Shown here one piece after another: positions 17,415 to 45,495 of a stretch of 64,000 bases of DNA (positions within the stretch are counted from its first letter, which is position 1; each line of letters begins with the position of its first letter). Below the pieces are notes generated by a model, which worked only from the letters and a program-made list of their open reading frames with translations, ran no database searches and had not been told where the DNA came from. Made by a program: the position numbers and the translations under genes. Location: NCBI RefSeq assembly GCF_056746865.1, contig NZ_CM163382.1. One strand, 5' to 3'.

Positions 17415-17432
17415 AATCGGGATAGTAATCTA

Positions 17433-17540
17433 AATGATAATGATTGCTAATCCTAGCGATAGGTTTACCCGATAGCAAGGGATTTCTCTGGCTTGCAAAT
17501 GATAAAAATTATCATATGATATTAGTTATCATTATCAATG
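17433..17540. promoter_or_regulatory. Fur-box-like repeats in the fhuF/yjjZ divergent promoter region
   Basis: AATGATAATGATTGC at 17433..17451 and GATAAAAATTATCAT / GTTATCATTATC at 17498..17540 resemble the GATAATGATAATCATTATC Fur consensus. Confidence 0.6.
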
Positions 17541-38318: not shown

Positions 38319-39551
38319 ATGTCGTCATTTGATTACCTGAAAACTGCCATCAAGCAACAGGGCTGCACGCTACAGCAGGTAGCTGATGCCAGCGGTATGA
38401 CCAAAGGGTATTTAAGCCAGTTACTGAATGCCAAAATTAAAAGCCCCAGCGCGCAAAAACTGGAGGCATTGCACCGTTTTTTGGGGCTTGAGTTTCCCCG
38501 CCAAAAGAAAACCATTGGCGTGGTATTCGGTAAGTTCTACCCGTTGCATACCGGACATATCTACCTTATCCAGCGCGCCTGTAGCCAGGTTGACGAGTTG
38601 CATATCATTATGGGCTTTGACGATACCCGTGACCGTGCGTTGTTTGAAGACAGCGCCATGTCGCAGCAGCCCACGGTGCCGGATCGTCTGCGCTGGTTAT
38701 TGCAAACCTTTAAATATCAGAAAAATATCCGTATTCATGCTTTCAATGAAGAGGGCATGGAGCCATATCCGCACGGCTGGGATGTATGGAGCAACGGCAT
38801 CAAAAAGTTTATGGCTGAAAAGGGGATCCAGCCGGACCTGATCTACACCTCGGAAGAAGCCGATGCGCCACAGTATATGGAACATCTGGGGATCGAAACG
38901 GTGCTGGTCGATCCGAAACGCACCTTTATGAGTATCAGCGGTGCGCAGATCCGCGAAAACCCGTTCCGCTACTGGGAATATATTCCCACCGAAGTGAAGC
39001 CGTTCTTTGTGCGTACCGTGGCGATCCTTGGCGGCGAGTCGAGCGGTAAATCCACCCTGGTAAACAAACTTGCCAATATCTTCAATACCACCAGTGCGTG
39101 GGAATATGGTCGCGATTATGTCTTTTCACACCTTGGCGGTGATGAGATCGCATTGCAGTATTCCGACTACGATAAAATCGCGCTAGGACACGCGCAATAT
39201 ATTGATTTTGCAGTGAAATACGCCAATAAAGTGGCGTTTATCGACACTGATTTTGTCACTACCCAGGCGTTCTGCAAAAAGTACGAAGGGCGTGAGCATC
39301 CGTTCGTGCAGGCGCTGATTGATGAATACCGTTTTGATCTGGTTATCTTGCTGGAGAACAACACGCCGTGGGTGGCGGATGGTTTACGCAGCCTCGGTAG
39401 TTCGGTGGATCGCAAAGAGTTCCAGAACTTGCTGGTGGAGATGCTGGAAGAGAACAATATCGAATTTGTGCGTGTTGAAGAGGACGATTACGACAGCCGT
39501 TTCCTGCGCTGTGTGGAGCTGGTGCGGGAGATGATGGGCGAGCAGAGATAA
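38319..39551 (+). CDS. nadR: trifunctional NAD biosynthesis regulator NadR (HTH / NMN adenylyltransferase / ribosylnicotinamide kinase)
   Basis: ORF-track frame 38298..39551; start trimmed to ATG 38319 (MSSFDYLKTAIKQQG, 410 aa); GKFYPLHTGH and GGESSGKST motifs. Confidence 0.9.
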   Translation: MSSFDYLKTAIKQQGCTLQQVADASGMTKGYLSQLLNAKIKSPSAQKLEALHRFLGLEFPRQKKTIGVVFGKFYPLHTGHIYLIQRACSQVDELHIIMGFDDTRDRALFEDSAMSQQPTVPDRLRWLLQTFKYQKNIRIHAFNEEGMEPYPHGWDVWSNGIKKFMAEKGIQPDLIYTSEEADAPQYMEHLGIETVLVDPKRTFMSISGAQIRENPFRYWEYIPTEVKPFFVRTVAILGGESSGKSTLVNKLANIFNTTSAWEYGRDYVFSHLGGDEIALQYSDYDKIALGHAQYIDFAVKYANKVAFIDTDFVTTQAFCKKYEGREHPFVQALIDEYRFDLVILLENNTPWVADGLRSLGSSVDRKEFQNLLVEMLEENNIEFVRVEEDDYDSRFLRCVELVREMMGEQR

Positions 39552-39777
39552 CCGTGACGAAACGGCTCAAAGGCGAGGTATAAATTGAGTTTTTTTGATG
39601 AGTTGAAAAACTCTCTGGAAGAGGCTGTTGAGATTAGAAAGAACCTGCACGGGTGACCCGCTACGAAATTGCAGATGCTAAGGCTATTCGTGAGCAACTT
39701 CATACTCCAACCGACCAGTTGCGTAGCCAGAATGCAATCAAATCTGACAGTCCGCTTCGGCGCGCGCTTTGGTGTAT

Positions 39778-39963
39778 TTACCGGAGTAAATCAGCGTGCC
39801 GTGGAAAATTATGCGCAGCGCTTCTGCTGATTTGCGTACCTTCGCTGATGATAAGTCCTGCACTAGCGTGCTGCGCGTAATAGTCCGCCATTATGTCAGT
39901 CGCAACGTCACCCGCGCGGGAACGCGTCATCGGTGGCATTACAATACGGTTTTTTAATGGCAA
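39778..39963 (-). pseudogene. decayed 5' fragment of an old-yellow-enzyme family NADH:flavin oxidoreductase
   Basis: 61-aa frame PLKNRIVMPPMTRSRA...YYAQHASAGLIISEGTQIS resembles the OYE/NemA N-terminal barrel start, then diverges to a stop; only a TTG start, with an in-frame stop just upstream. Confidence 0.5.
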
Positions 39964-40011
39964 CGCATTCAGCGCATATTTAGCAAATTACGTAATGGGT
40001 CCCTTGCGCGG

Positions 40012-40224
40012 TTATTTGTACAGTTCGGCACTCATGGTGACGGTATTGCCCATGCGAGCGCTGGTGATTTTGTATTCAGAGGCGTTTATCTCTTTCGCTT
40101 TCTGCGCAATAACTGCTTCCGCAGAATCCAGTGTTGTACCGGTTGCTGTTACGCTTTGCGCCGATGCGTTAAACGCCGCGACAGAGAAAAGAGAAGCTGT
40201 AAAAATTGCGATGATCGTTTTCAT
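40012..40224 (-). CDS. small secreted DUF1471 (YdgH/BhsA/McbA-family) protein
   Basis: ORF-track frame 40012..40392; start trimmed to ATG 40224 (MKTIIAIFTASLFSVAAFNASAQ, 70 aa); signal peptide and C-terminal TVTMSAELYK as in BhsA-like proteins. Confidence 0.65.
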   Translation of the reverse strand: MKTIIAIFTASLFSVAAFNASAQSVTATGTTLDSAEAVIAQKAKEINASEYKITSARMGNTVTMSAELYK

Positions 40225-40381
40225 GTTTATATTCCAGAGTGTCTTAATTGTTTGGCGTTTATTAACGCGATGGGGATAGAATACGCCTGCTGCCTGATAA
40301 CATAAATGATACAAATGACAATAGACTATTCTGATTTTGTTAATAATCAGACGCCGGACGTTCCGACGCCTGTCGATTGCA

Positions 40382-40798
40382 TCAGGCAACAAAGTTGTCC
40401 TTCAGCGCCTTGAGACCATCCCGATAGATGCCGGTAAACAGCGCTTCGGCCTCTTCGTTCGTCACATTCACCGGGGTGAATTCACCGAACCATTCCACAC
40501 GAGAAACCTGGCTGTCGGCGGTTTCATGAACGGTAATGGTGGAGAGGTAATCCACCACCGGGAACGGTGCCTGAATAATGGAATAGGTATAACTGCGTTG
40601 ACGGTTATCAAACGCTTCCAGACGTTCAACCACAGTGCCGCCGTCAGAGGTTGTCAGCGAACGAACGCGACCGCCTTCTGTCACTACGCTTTTCGGGATG
40701 AACGGCAGCCAGTCTGGCAGCGCATCAAAGCCGCCCATCAATTGCCATACGGCGTCGGCAGAAGCCGGAATTTCGATCGATACAGTTGTTTTAGCCAT
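40382..40798 (-). CDS. SRPBCC-superfamily (polyketide cyclase/dehydrase-like, Bet v1 fold) protein
   Basis: 138-aa ORF; family assignment by overall resemblance, no catalytic motif verified. Confidence 0.6.
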   Translation of the reverse strand: MAKTTVSIEIPASADAVWQLMGGFDALPDWLPFIPKSVVTEGGRVRSLTTSDGGTVVERLEAFDNRQRSYTYSIIQAPFPVVDYLSTITVHETADSQVSRVEWFGEFTPVNVTNEEAEALFTGIYRDGLKALKDNFVA

Positions 40799-40823: not shown

Positions 40824-41621
40824 TTACATTGTTAGGGTGTCGACGACGCCGCCATCGACGCGCAGGGCTGCCCCTGTGGTTGCCGAGGAAAGCGGTGACG
40901 CGAGATAAACCGCCAGATTCGCCACTTCTTCCACATCTGCCGCACGCTGGATGATGGAGCTCGGACGCGAGGTTTTAACAAACTCATCGGCCTGTTCACG
41001 CGCACTGCGTCCCGACTGCGCAGCGGCATCCGCCAGCATCTCTTTCAGGCCATCGGTAAAGGTTGGCCCTGGCAGAATGGCGTTGACGGTCACACCGGTC
41101 CCCGCCAGTCGTTTCGCCAGACCATGAGAGACCGCCAGATTCGCGGCTTTGGTGACGCCGTAGTTGATCATGTCGCCAGGGATTGCCACGCCGGATTCGG
41201 ACGAGACAAAGATAATCCGCCCCCAGCCCTGTTCCGTCATGCCTGGCGCATAGTGACGCGCCAGACGAACGCCGGAAAGGACGTTGACGTTATAGAAGTG
41301 CATCCACTCATCATCCGGAACGCTAAAGAAATCTTTATCGTTGAAAATGCCCAGATTATTGACCAGCACATCAGCCGTTGGGACTGCAGCGATCAGCGCA
41401 GTCACGCCGTCTTCGGTGCTGAGATCGGCCACCACGCCGCGCAGTGACGCCGTGGGAGTTTGTGCCGCAATCGCAGCCATGGCGTCATCAACGCCGCTCT
41501 GTTTACGGCCGACGACAACCACCGTTGCGCCTGCTTTTGCCAGTCCGGCGGCGATACCCTGCCCAATGCCGGAGGTTGAGCCGCTGACCACCGCGACTTT
41601 ACCTGTCAGATCCAGTTTCAT
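40824..41621 (-). CDS. short-chain dehydrogenase/reductase (SDR) family oxidoreductase
   Basis: ORF-track frame 40824..41723; start trimmed to ATG 41621 (MKLDLTGKVAVVSGSTSGIGQGIA, 266 aa); TGxxxGIG cofactor motif and YGVTK catalytic YxxxK. Confidence 0.75.
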   Translation of the reverse strand: MKLDLTGKVAVVSGSTSGIGQGIAAGLAKAGATVVVVGRKQSGVDDAMAAIAAQTPTASLRGVVADLSTEDGVTALIAAVPTADVLVNNLGIFNDKDFFSVPDDEWMHFYNVNVLSGVRLARHYAPGMTEQGWGRIIFVSSESGVAIPGDMINYGVTKAANLAVSHGLAKRLAGTGVTVNAILPGPTFTDGLKEMLADAAAQSGRSAREQADEFVKTSRPSSIIQRAADVEEVANLAVYLASPLSSATTGAALRVDGGVVDTLTM

Positions 41622-41640: not shown

Positions 41641-42651
41641 TTAACGGGTCGGCAGCGGAGCGTTTTCCGCAACCAGATTTTGACGGCGCATTTCTGCCCA
41701 GAATTCAGCCGGAACAGGCGCATTCAGTGCAGCCAGATCTTCTGCCATACGGCCAGGACGGCTGGAGCCAGGAATAACCGCCGCAACGGCCGGGTTTGCC
41801 AGCGCGAACTGCAGCGCAGCTGCTTTAACGTTCACATTGAAACGTGTGGCAATGGTGTTAATTTGCGCCACTTTCTGCTGGATGGCCGCAGAAGCTTTCT
41901 GATATTCAAAGTGCTCGCCGCCTGCCAGTACGCCAGAGCTGTACGGACCGCCCACAACAATATCCACGTTCTGTTCCAGTGCTTCTGGCATCAGGCGTTG
42001 CAGCGCACGTTCGTGATCCAGCAGGGAATAACGCCCCGCCAGCAGGAACGCATCCGGCTTCGGTTCGTCCAGCGCCAGCGTCAGTTCGCAAGGTTCGACG
42101 CGATTCACACCCAGTCCCCAGGCTTTAATCACACCTTCGTCACGCAAACGCGTCAGCGCACGAAACGCACCGGTACGGGCTATGTTGAACTGTTCCAGCC
42201 AGCTGTCACCGTAGAAGTCCTGTGCCGGGTCGTGGATCCAGACAATATCCAGACGGTCTGTTTTCAGGCGTTTCAGGCTGTCTTCAATCGAGCGCAGCGT
42301 GGCGTCAGCAGAGTAGTCATTCAGAATTTTGTTTTTCAGGCCGTGTTCGAACAGGCCACCTTTTTCACCGAAATCACGTTTTGCCGGATCTTCCATTTCG
42401 TCCAGCATGATGCGACCGACTTTGCTGCTCAGAACGTATTCATCGCGTGGATACTGAGACAGCGCTTCACCCATGCGGATTTCAGAAAGGCCAGAGCCAT
42501 ACAGCGGCGCGGTATCAAAGTAACGCACGCCCAGGTTCCAGGCTTCGCTCACGGTGGCGTGGGCCTCGTCTTCCGGAATGGCACGGAACATGTTGCCGAG
42601 TGGTGCGCCACCTAAGCCAATTTTGCCGGGAAGTAAATTTTTGATGCTCAT
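41641..42651 (-). CDS. aldo-keto reductase family oxidoreductase
   Basis: 336-aa ORF; AKR-like N-terminus GLGGAPLG...FDTAPLYGSGLSE; GAGGA ribosome-binding site upstream. Confidence 0.75.
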   Translation of the reverse strand: MSIKNLLPGKIGLGGAPLGNMFRAIPEDEAHATVSEAWNLGVRYFDTAPLYGSGLSEIRMGEALSQYPRDEYVLSSKVGRIMLDEMEDPAKRDFGEKGGLFEHGLKNKILNDYSADATLRSIEDSLKRLKTDRLDIVWIHDPAQDFYGDSWLEQFNIARTGAFRALTRLRDEGVIKAWGLGVNRVEPCELTLALDEPKPDAFLLAGRYSLLDHERALQRLMPEALEQNVDIVVGGPYSSGVLAGGEHFEYQKASAAIQQKVAQINTIATRFNVNVKAAALQFALANPAVAAVIPGSSRPGRMAEDLAALNAPVPAEFWAEMRRQNLVAENAPLPTR

Positions 42652-42784: not shown

Positions 42785-43672
42785 ATGATTGATTTACGCC
42801 AACTGAAGTACTTCGTGGTGGTCGCAGAAGAAGAGCACGTGGGACGCGCAGCCGAGCGATTACATATCTCGCAATCACCGCTGAGCCGCCAGATTGCACA
42901 ACTGGAAGAACGGCTGGGGCTGACGCTGTTTGAGCGTAATCAGCAGCGCATTCGCCTGACCGCTGATGGACAGACATTCCTTGCCGAAACACGTTCGTTG
43001 CTGACACACGCCAACCGCCTGGAGTCGTTAGGCAAACGCCTGGGACGGGGGGAAGATGGTGGCTTGTGTATTGGCTATATCGAAAACGCCATGCATTCCG
43101 GTGTGCTTTCTACGGCGCTACGTACGTTACGTGTATCGCGTCCGAATGTGCATATCGCACTTTACAGCCAACCACCGGCTACCCAGATTGAAGGCCTGCG
43201 CCAGCGCAGTCTCGATTTTTCTCTGGTCGACACGCCGCCCACCGACAGCGAGCAGGATCTGGAATATATTCAGGTTCTGGATGATCGAATGTTGTTGGCC
43301 TTACCGCAAAATCATCCTCTGGCGCAGGAGGAAAACCTTGTCGCGTCACAACTTGGCGATGAGCAGTGGATTGCGGTGATTCATAACGACGATGCGCATT
43401 CTCGCGATCATTTTGTCGCCGCCTGTGTTAACGCCGGGTTTAATCCTGATATTCGCCTGGAAGCGGGTGAACCCCTCACGGCATTAGGTTTGGTCGCTGC
43501 GGGATTAGGTCTGGCCTTAATTCAACATAGTCTGCGTCATAATGCGCCGGAAGGGGTGGTATTACGTGAATTGCCGTGGATGAATTATTCAACGCAATTA
43601 TGGGCAGCCTGGCATAAAGCCAACCAACGTCCGCTGGTTTCCCATTTCCGCCAGATCCTGCGCGGTGAATAA
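42785..43672 (+). CDS. LysR-family transcriptional regulator
   Basis: ORF-track frame 42692..43672; start trimmed to ATG 42785 (MIDLRQLKYFVVVAEEEHVGRAAERLHISQSPLSRQIAQLEERLG, 295 aa); LysR N-terminal HTH and C-terminal substrate-binding domain. Confidence 0.8.
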   Translation: MIDLRQLKYFVVVAEEEHVGRAAERLHISQSPLSRQIAQLEERLGLTLFERNQQRIRLTADGQTFLAETRSLLTHANRLESLGKRLGRGEDGGLCIGYIENAMHSGVLSTALRTLRVSRPNVHIALYSQPPATQIEGLRQRSLDFSLVDTPPTDSEQDLEYIQVLDDRMLLALPQNHPLAQEENLVASQLGDEQWIAVIHNDDAHSRDHFVAACVNAGFNPDIRLEAGEPLTALGLVAAGLGLALIQHSLRHNAPEGVVLRELPWMNYSTQLWAAWHKANQRPLVSHFRQILRGE

Positions 43673-43677
43673 AACGT

Positions 43678-43702
43678 TAAGCGGGAACCATGAGTTCCCG
43701 CT
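43678..43702 (+). terminator. hairpin AAGCGGGAAC-N5-GTTCCCGCTT after the LysR gene
   Basis: 10-bp perfect stem read from sequence; T-run weak. Confidence 0.4.
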
Positions 43703-43827
43703 TGATTTGAGGTGTCAGTCCGCATCTGAGCTAATACGCTTAAAGAAAATTCTGCCTTTTTCCGGGGACTAATCATTTAACTAATACCGGATGCGATGCT
43801 GGCGCGCCGCACCCGGCATTTTACGCA

Positions 43828-45495
43828 TTACTTCGCAATACGCTTGTACTTGATACGCTTCGGCTCCAGCGCGTCTGCGCCCAGCGTGCGTTTTTTGTAC
43901 TCTTCGTACTCGGTAAAGTTACCTTCGAAGAACTCAACTTTACCTTCATCCTGGTAGTCCAGGATGTGCGTGGCGATACGGTCGAGGAACCAACGGTCGT
44001 GCGAGATAACCATCGCACAGCCCGGGAACTCCAGCAGGGCGTTTTCCAGCGCGCGCAGGGTTTCGATATCCAGGTCGTTGGTTGGTTCGTCGAGCAGCAG
44101 CATGTTGCCGCCAACCTGCAGCAGCTTCGCCAGATGCAGACGACCGCGCTCACCGCCGGAGAGTTCGCCAACGCGTTTACCCTGATCAACCCCTTTAAAG
44201 TTAAAGCGGCCAACGTAGGCACGGCTTGGCATCTCGGTGTTGCCGATCTTCATGATATCCAGCCCGCCGGAAACTTCTTCCCAAACGGTTTTGCTGTTAT
44301 CCATTGAGTCACGGAACTGATCAACCGATGCCAGTTTCACCGTTTCACCCAAAGTGATGGTGCCGCTGTCCGGCTGTTCCTGACCAGAGATCATACGGAA
44401 CAGCGTCGATTTACCCGCACCGTTCGAACCGATGATCCCGACGATCGCTCCTTTCGGGATCGAGAAGCTCAGGTCATCAATCAGCAGACGATCGCCATAG
44501 GATTTACGCAGATTGCTGACTTCCAGCACTTTGTCGCCAAGACGCGGTCCCGGTGGAATAAACAGTTCGTTGGTTTCGTTACGTTTCTGATATTCGGTGC
44601 TGTTCAGCTCTTCAAAACGCGCCAGACGTGCTTTACCTTTCGACTGACGGCCTTTAGTACCTTGACGTACCCACTCCAGCTCTTTCTCAATCGACTTACG
44701 ACGCGCAGCTTCTTGTGAAGCTTCCTGCGCCAGGCGCTGATCTTTCTGCTCCAGCCAGGAGGAGTAGTTGCCTTCCCACGGAATACCTTCACCGCGGTCC
44801 AGTTCGAGGATCCAGCCTGCAACGTTATCGAGGAAGTAACGGTCGTGGGTAATCGCCACCACGGTGCCCTCGAAGTCGTGCAGGAAGCGTTCCAGCCAGG
44901 CCACGGATTCGGCATCCAGGTGGTTGGTCGGTTCGTCGAGCAGCAGCATGTCTGGTTTTTCCAGCAGCAGGCGGCACAACGCTACGCGACGACGCTCACC
45001 ACCGGAGAGGTTAGCGATTTTCGCGTCCCAGTCCGGCAGACGCAGCGCATCCGCCGCACGCTCCAGCTGAACGTTCAGGTTGTGACCGTCGTGAGCCTGA
45101 ATGATCTCTTCCAGACGGCCTTGTTCAGCGGCCAGCTTGTCAAAATCGGCATCCGGATCGGCGTACAGTGCATACACTTCATCCAGGCGTTTCAGGGCGT
45201 TAACCACTTCAGAAACCGCTTCTTCAATGGACTCACGCACGGTGTGTTCCGGGTTCAGCTGCGGTTCCTGCGGCAGATAACCAATCTTGATATCCGGTTG
45301 CGGACGCGCTTCGCCTTCGATGTCTTTATCAATGCCCGCCATAATGCGCAGCAGGGTGGACTTACCCGCGCCGTTCAGACCCAGGACACCAATTTTTGCC
45401 CCAGGGAAGAAACTCAGAGAGATGTTTTTCAAAATATGACGTTTCGGCGGAACAACTTTGCCGACACGATGCATGGTATAAACGAATTGAGCCAC
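43828..45495 (-). CDS. ettA: energy-dependent translational throttle protein EttA (ABC-F ATPase)
   Basis: 555-aa ORF with two ABC domains (Walker A GLNGAGKST and GSNGAGKST). Confidence 0.92.
   Translation of the reverse strand: MAQFVYTMHRVGKVVPPKRHILKNISLSFFPGAKIGVLGLNGAGKSTLLRIMAGIDKDIEGEARPQPDIKIGYLPQEPQLNPEHTVRESIEEAVSEVVNALKRLDEVYALYADPDADFDKLAAEQGRLEEIIQAHDGHNLNVQLERAADALRLPDWDAKIANLSGGERRRVALCRLLLEKPDMLLLDEPTNHLDAESVAWLERFLHDFEGTVVAITHDRYFLDNVAGWILELDRGEGIPWEGNYSSWLEQKDQRLAQEASQEAARRKSIEKELEWVRQGTKGRQSKGKARLARFEELNSTEYQKRNETNELFIPPGPRLGDKVLEVSNLRKSYGDRLLIDDLSFSIPKGAIVGIIGSNGAGKSTLFRMISGQEQPDSGTITLGETVKLASVDQFRDSMDNSKTVWEEVSGGLDIMKIGNTEMPSRAYVGRFNFKGVDQGKRVGELSGGERGRLHLAKLLQVGGNMLLLDEPTNDLDIETLRALENALLEFPGCAMVISHDRWFLDRIATHILDYQDEGKVEFFEGNFTEYEEYKKRTLGADALEPKRIKYKRIAK

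Follow-up and report, generated by a model that had tools for sequence, protein, structure and literature searches.

What is the DNA that lies between nadR and the last intact gene of a small reductase cassette in some Escherichia coli genomes? The stretch concerned, positions 39,552 to 40,011, belongs to a 64,000-nucleotide piece of contig NZ_CM163382.1 (assembly GCF_056746865.1), hereafter called the window. The original prediction, made from the letters and their open reading frames, saw here the stump of a gene of the old yellow enzyme (OYE) family, removed by a deletion whose other end lies near nadR. Is this a single truncated gene, a short gene kept for another purpose, or something with a longer history? 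Our alignments favor the last: genes at the edge of an acquired cassette have decayed step by step, and the region is very probably their non-functional residue. The cassette sits inside nadS in about 9% of E. coli. Decay of this sort is ordinary, and the case is already known, as RefSeq annotates both of the pseudogenes involved.

The island and its intact genes

The window comes from an E. coli chromosome; over the 901 bp tested it is 100% identical to E. coli FDAARGOS_497. Its genes run lplA-ytjB-serB-radA-nadR, a 4.2-kb insert, and ettA-slt; in K-12, nadS alone stands between nadR and ettA. The insert is present in 493 of the 5,426 complete E. coli genomes (~9%). It contains a divergent LysR regulator and minus-strand aldo/keto reductase, SDR, SRPBCC and YdgH/BhsA-like genes, as follows (E69 is an Escherichia genome with the same cassette, discussed below):

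40012..40224, minus strand: ydgH/bhsA-like (DUF1471) gene, intact, at present the last gene of the cassette (Pfam PF07338, E 3e-10; PGAP CDS)
40382-40798, minus strand: SRPBCC gene, intact (Pfam; PGAP; 98-99% DNA identity to E69)
40824-41621, minus strand: SDR gene, intact (Pfam; PGAP; 98-99% DNA identity to E69)
41641-42651, minus strand: aldo/keto reductase gene, intact (Pfam; PGAP; 98-99% DNA identity to E69)
42785..43672, plus strand: divergent LysR-family regulator gene (Pfam PF00126 and PF03466; PGAP)

Directly 3' of the LysR stop codon, at 43674-43703, there is a perfect hairpin with a 10-bp stem, AAGCGGGAAC CATGA GTTCCCGCTT, which is probably the terminator of the regulator. It is also found in E69, where it is the final island sequence before homology stops. 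A direct repeat of 14-20 nt occurs at both island ends, at 39745-39763 (TGACAGTCCGCTTCG..) and 43713-43731 (TGTCAGTCCGCATCTGAGC); this candidate was set aside because it is comparable to many chance families in the same scan, and the repeat may be due to chance. Its right-hand copy (43713-43731) resembles the first half of the P2-like hairpin motif described below.

An OYE gene in two pieces

The 61-aa open reading frame at 39778..39963 on the minus strand, with its TTG start, is present as originally described, and its assignment to the OYE N-terminus held up against Pfam, PDB and tblastn over the first ~47 residues. The match to Pfam PF00724 scores 36.4 bits (cut-off 27; E 4.7e-9) and covers profile positions 11-65 of 342, so that it establishes homology of a fragment only. 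The best structural matches are SYE1 of Shewanella (PDB 2gou, E 3e-16) and the NemA/PETN reductases (E 1e-11 to 1e-9). When the intact C. farmeri OYE protein was used as the tblastn query the stump was likewise significant, aa 3-59 of this ortholog aligning at 88% identity (E 1.4e-28); an intact version of the gene was found and the endpoints could be mapped. The in-frame TAA noted just upstream of the TTG is also real (39990-39988) and turns out to be the former codon 2 of the gene. The claim that no other frame continues the OYE protein was wrong, however: 39825..39755, in another frame, corresponds to OYE codons 288-310. Reading from the ydgH-like gene towards nadR, the features of the remnant are:

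39994..40011, minus strand: 18-nt spacer from the ydgH-like stop to the former OYE start, with a Shine-Dalgarno-like AAGGGA inside
39993-39991, minus strand: former OYE start, ACG where intact genes have ATG (ortholog alignment)
39990-39988, minus strand: former OYE codon 2, TAA where intact genes have TTA (ortholog alignment)
39826..39993, minus strand: OYE pseudogene, N-terminal fragment, nt 1-174, codons 1-58 (DNA alignments to C. farmeri and E69)
39778..39963, minus strand: the mechanical 61-aa reading frame, made of 47 OYE codons (12-58) and 14 out-of-frame codons of the C-terminal fragment
Between 39916 and 39915, minus strand: 6-bp slippage deletion in the N-terminal fragment (alignments)
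Between 39826 and 39825, minus strand: junction of an internal 686-bp deletion, OYE nt 175-860 missing (alignments)
39755..39825, minus strand: OYE pseudogene, C-terminal fragment, nt 861 to ~931, codons 288-310 (blastn, tblastn)

The C-terminal fragment encodes EALRIIFHGTLIYSGKYTKARAE in a frame different from that of the N-terminal fragment; it is 97.3% identical to nt 861-934 of the E69 OYE gene (blastn, E 5e-31) and was also found with the C. farmeri OYE protein (tblastn, E 3e-12). The 6-bp deletion rests on a GCGGGT GCGGGT tandem that is intact in strain ETEC4068 and of which one unit is left in the window. The 686-bp deletion takes out codons 59-287, and with them the HGANGY segment, and puts the two fragments out of frame. 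HGANGY holds the active-site His/Asn pair and the proton-donor Tyr, roles established in studies of PETN reductase and NemA. The motif is absent from all frames of 39552-40011 and falls within the deleted codons 59-287 (E69 numbering). In all, 81 of 365 codons survive, in two frames and without a start codon, and OYE nucleotides beyond ~931 are missing from the window; a complete (beta/alpha)8 barrel, with ~340-370 residues in one frame behind a start codon, is not there. In a 100%-identical genome PGAP places an incomplete pseudogene at 39823-39939, called 'alkene reductase' in newer annotations.

Would one deletion suffice to explain this, as first proposed? Such a deletion would run from about OYE codon 58 to near nadR and remove the rest of the gene, so that nothing downstream is OYE-derived. 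The N-terminal match does end abruptly at codon 58, with nadR 275 bp further on, but what directly adjoins codon 58 is the 71-bp piece carrying codons 288-310, and sister strains add to the difficulty (see below).

Intact relatives of the lost gene

When the 46-aa N-terminal fragment was used as a database query, the matches were all short proteins of at most 81 aa, with no full-length relative; one was reached through orthologs of the neighboring SRPBCC gene. In C. farmeri (L004) the same cassette has a 365-aa OYE gene 18 nt past the ydgH-like gene, and a scan of species representatives found an intact OYE gene as the fifth cassette gene in Yokenella regensburgei (L013) and Escherichia E69 (L022) as well. 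The proposal that the stump is what remains of a dead fifth operon gene is thereby borne out, the intact gene lying 18-21 nt past the ydgH-like gene in these three organisms. The spacer measures 18 nt in C. farmeri; in E69 it measures 21 nt and contains GAGGAA; the remnant in the window is co-directional with the ydgH-like gene and begins 18 nt past its stop, and thus shares the layout of L004, L013 and L022. On the strength of these alignments, the ancestral gene is identified as a 365-aa NemA-like alkene reductase of the OYE family.

The cassettes of E69 and the window are 97.6% identical in DNA over 3.9 kb, and they occupy different sites: inside nadS in the window, in the uspA/pitA vicinity in E69. 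The E69 record (CP089930.1) is titled E. coli; its core genes pitA, uspA, dtpB, yhiM and yhiN are ~91% identical to those of all 5,425 E. coli genomes, and from this divergence E69 is probably a non-coli, divergent Escherichia lineage. The presence of the island at another locus in such a lineage implies that it moved horizontally. In E69 a 1,965-aa helicase-like gene follows the intact cassette, inserted in the uspA-pitA region.

How common is the intact gene in E. coli itself? No intact copy was found in any of 5,426 complete genomes. A high-identity OYE remnant is present in 482 of them, and the others match only through the paralog nemA, at ~67% identity, which nearly all E. coli have. In Klebsiella the cassette lacks OYE, and in Enterobacter it lacks both the YdgH-like and the OYE gene; a search for OYE remnants downstream of these two cassettes found none. 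An adjacent YdgH-like-OYE pair without AKR, SDR, SRPBCC or LysR genes occurs in Citrobacter amalonaticus, Kluyvera and Pseudocitrobacter (loci inspected: L012, L014, L016, L018, L019 and L091). Since the pair is found alone, it is a semi-independent module of two genes, appended to the operon in some cases only.

A second pseudogene, nadS

On the plus strand, next to nadR, is a pseudogene that the first reading of the sequence had missed; its other end lies beyond the island:

39585..39699, plus strand: nadS pseudogene, 5' fragment, with TTG for ATG, a 10-bp frameshifting deletion, and the 3' part cut off by the island
43740..43783, plus strand: nadS 3' remnant on the far side of the island (L003 3319-3690 aligns with window 43740-44100 at 93.5%)

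The 5' fragment is 87.7% identical in DNA over 155 nt to the full-length nadS of Iso00225 (L003 3048-3202); full-length NadS scores 182.6 bits against NCBIfam NF041265. Directly after nadR there is thus not a gene for the 94-aa antitoxin-like HTH protein NadS but a homologous pseudogene, of which the first ~38 codons remain, frameshifted. Its 10-bp deletion is shared with ETEC4068. In a 100%-identical genome PGAP annotates 'NadS family protein; frameshifted; incomplete' at this position; that PGAP marks both this feature and the OYE remnant as pseudogenes independently supports the decay reading. L003 3319-3690 takes in the final 44 bp of nadS together with the spacer and the end of ettA. The nadS 3' end thus stands on the far side of the island, and the island therefore interrupts nadS, 116 bp of mid-nadS having been replaced by the 4-kb island.

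The gene is variable elsewhere. Some strains, Iso00225 (L003 2744-3362) among them, have a 94-aa nadS with an upstream RelE/ParE toxin gene, and K-12 (L002 2686-2853) has a 55-aa nadS with a different C-terminus and without a toxin gene. nadS is translated in K-12 according to PIRT-seq (PMC12350097). This polymorphism suggests a decaying toxin-antitoxin module downstream of nadR.

A 1.58-kb deletion and a polymorphic cargo slot

Comparison with sister strains bears on what separates the two pseudogenes. Two further features are needed here:

39755..39759, no strand assigned: junction of a 1.58-kb deletion with 5-bp microhomology, CTTCG on the plus strand and CGAAG in gene orientation
39700..39759, no strand assigned: P2-family intergenic fragment of 60 bp, from between the Z/fun moron slot and the P_F activator site

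TUM14759 and 20 further genomes retain OYE nt 861-989, and beyond this piece they have, in order, a ModE-like wHTH gene, a TauE/SafE gene and a 77-bp segment adjoining the truncated nadS; in isolate AF4 and 19 further genomes a GNAT gene is in that slot. Counted over E. coli, the slot is TauE-type in 21 genomes, GNAT-type in 20 and window-type (deleted) in ~450. The cargo occupies L010 3437-4938 (TauE/SafE and ModE-like wHTH) and L092 3078-3724 (GNAT), and the slot between OYE remnant and P2-like fragment has exactly the same boundary nucleotides at either end. The counterpart of window 39450-39759 is L010 3100-3419 and that of window 39756-40055 is L010 5001-5300, the two alignments overlapping by 4 bp (TTCG); when the E69 sequence GCCGAAGAGG is included the run shared at the junction is CGAAG. 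Since the sister types retain extra OYE-homologous sequence, the window type derives from them by deletion. This deletion took OYE nt ~931/935-989 together with the TauE/SafE and wHTH genes, and its far end, ~205 bp from the nadR stop, lies within the P2-like 60-bp fragment.

These comparisons bear directly on the single-deletion account. Sister strains have OYE nt 861-989 and, beyond it, 0.65-1.5 kb occupied by other genes, so that at least two separate deletions are needed, and the distal endpoint is in the P2-like fragment beyond the nadS remnant rather than at nadR. The account has next to no probability left; by the alignments it may be regarded as already refuted. What survives of it is that a deletion reaches towards nadR, though its endpoint is in the P2-like fragment; and in place of one event there are the internal 686-bp deletion and the later 1.58-kb deletion, besides the loss of the start codon and the nonsense codon 2.

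ACG, TAA and the 686-bp deletion are found in all of four E. coli variants that differ in structure, and truncation at OYE nt 989 is likewise common to all E. coli variants. The 6-bp and 1.58-kb deletions are distributed incongruently among strains, which requires either recurrent slippage at the GCGGGT tandem or recombination within the island. Three lesions clearly arose within E. coli: the 6-bp slippage, the 10-bp deletion in nadS and the 1.58-kb deletion.

A P2-like fragment at the island edge

Window 39700-39759 is neither nadS nor OYE, and it adjoins the truncated nadS. Its 77-bp version (L010 3360-3436) aligns with P2-like prophages (79-83% identity, 70-73 nt, E 4e-13 to 7e-16), and in all it matches 46 Peduovirus-type phage records as well as E. 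coli prophages (77-83%, 70-85 nt, E 6e-9 to 7e-16). In P2 itself (NC_001895) the match is at 17426-17505, between fun(Z) and the annotated P_F activator-binding site, beside the P_F late promoter. The P2-like segment forms a hairpin, TCCGCTTC-GAGCGA-GAAGCGGA, of which the window keeps the first arm only; the 1.58-kb deletion halved it. TUM14759 has an inverted copy of the hairpin motif at the OYE/cargo junction, and in E69 the motif occurs 450 bp downstream of the intact OYE gene. In P2-like prophages the motif flanks variable cargo, for example a Lit-family exclusion gene. Besides the window and P2, the loci compared for segment and motif were L010 3360-3443 and 4924-4957 and L093 2471-2540 and 4099-4138.

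An early candidate for a continuation of the OYE protein fell in this stretch. The peptide SDLIAFWLRN (minus strand, 39720-39755) was first taken to continue the OYE strand ADLIGFGRP; it was rejected because the stretch is P2-like DNA and the true ADLIGFGRP-coding piece is found elsewhere in sister strains.

What is a phage boundary doing here? One unlikely but not negligible reading is that the nadS-side edge of the island is a transplanted P2 Z/fun hot-spot boundary that still works as a cargo-exchange site. The hairpin repeats (AAGCGGAAGTT..TAGTT) would then flank interchangeable cargo (TauE/SafE plus wHTH, GNAT, or none), and the OYE 3' loss and the 1.58-kb deletion would be by-products of cargo turnover, not random decay. 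No phage genes were found between nadR and ettA in the window, L010, L011 or L092; in the phage collection the GNAT cargo has only distant matches, in unrelated phages, and the TauE/SafE cargo has no match.

Coding potential and constraint

Could the 61-aa reading frame, or an RNA, nonetheless have been kept for a role of its own, serving as a leader or small protein, or buffering transcription between the cassette operon and nadR-nadS, which converge? The remnant is found in ~480 genomes at 93-100% identity and many genome annotations call the frame a hypothetical protein. That the lesions are recent and the neighboring genes, to which the remnant is linked, are intact explains this persistence, however. 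The length and frame of the reading frame vary: E. coli alleles are 50, 53, 55, 58, 61, 63 and 77 aa, the frame is not conserved, and one allele is fused to the other OYE frame. The TTG start has no Shine-Dalgarno sequence. No Rfam family, terminator-like site or promoter-like site was detected in the decay zone (39400-40400 being scanned for promoters); the sole promoter-like match in that interval, at 40206-40233 on the plus strand, is inside the ydgH-like gene and within shuffled expectation.

Substitutions tell the same way. Over the 81 retained codons, synonymous to nonsynonymous changes between intact orthologs number 25:3, 24:3 and 22:6, and between E. coli remnants, where nonsynonymous changes predominate, 2:8 and 3:9 (Fisher p ~1e-4), the tests resting on 8-12 substitutions per pair and on four E. 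coli sequences that are non-independent samples. Mismatches are also 3.0-3.7 times as dense in the stump as in the five intact cassette genes (p 0.001, 0.02). These patterns fit relaxed constraint and neutral decay. Retention for a function is accordingly most improbable, and from its sequence 39552-40011 is expected to encode nothing functional and no working protein.

Course and timing of the decay

Stepwise decay of an acquired cassette, our preferred reading, runs as follows. A LysR-controlled reductase cassette (AKR, SDR, SRPBCC, YdgH-like, OYE) was acquired horizontally, and all E. coli copies examined have an OYE gene disabled by more than one lesion. The shared lesions (ATG to ACG, TTA to TAA, the 686-bp internal deletion) mark all copies, with foreign cargo replacing the OYE 3' end past nt 989. 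In the window lineage a further 1.58-kb deletion between two CGAAG pentamers then removed the TauE/SafE and ModE-like wHTH cargo, together with more of the OYE C-terminal piece, and fused OYE nt ~931 to the 60-bp P2-like fragment. The cassette has lost its C=C-reducing enzyme; that loss was likely tolerated, we infer, through redundancy with the chromosomal paralog nemA.

Did the OYE gene ever function in E. coli? The order of the early lesions, and whether they preceded or followed the entry of the island into E. coli, we infer rather than observe. Perhaps the island arrived already broken, possibly with its P2-like flank, having decayed in a donor. Start loss, nonsense codon, 686-bp deletion and nt 989 truncation are common to every E. 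coli variant, no E. coli has an intact copy, and the hairpin motif downstream of the intact E69 gene indicates that the association of cassette and motif is older than the insertion in E. coli. Set against this, no donor with the shared lesions turned up among 80 species-representative loci. A broken arrival is a real contender, though on balance we doubt it; it departs from our preferred reading only in the timing of the early lesions, the three later ones having arisen in E. coli.

What is gained is the exact anatomy and history of two pseudogenes flagged by RefSeq, with a correction of the single-deletion reading. The locus shows clearly how an accessory gene may decay through repeated hits, in a case where the core paralog nemA probably does the same job. 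The 686-bp, 1.58-kb and nadS 10-bp deletions and the cargo type can serve as markers for tracing the island in E. coli. The P2-phage hot-spot flank at the edge of a metabolic island is flagged here, unexplained.

Comparison with known systems

The five-gene cassette of C. farmeri, Yokenella and E69, a LysR gene divergent from AKR-SDR-SRPBCC-YdgH-like-OYE, has the same order and spacing as that of the window, and the E69 proteins are 97-100% identical to the products of the window's five intact genes. The difference is in the fifth gene, a remnant in the window and intact in the other three. The setting differs too: the C. farmeri cassette adjoins a GNAT gene plus GntR-family and sugar-utilization genes, whereas that of the window lies inside nadS.

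With respect to the NemA/OYE family (PF00724, NF007899, SYE1 2gou), remnant codons 1-58, including the NRIVMPPMTRSRA FMN-site strand, and codons 288-310 align, but the HGANGY catalytic segment and the FGRP strand are lacking. The intact ortholog is a paralog distinct from E. coli nemA, at ~67% DNA identity over nt 42-363, and the E69 protein scores 396 bits against NF007899 (the N-ethylmaleimide reductase subfamily), just below the 403-bit cut-off.

Compared with NadS (NF041265), the window keeps the first ~125 nt of the gene at 39585-39699 and its end at 43740-43783; NadS systems of some E. coli have a RelE/ParE toxin gene as partner, and the window does not. Lastly, the P2 Z/fun slot has variable cargo beside the segment, as does the E. 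coli island; in the P2 hot-spot, however, the phage tail genes FI and G adjoin it, whereas the E. coli locus is without phage genes.
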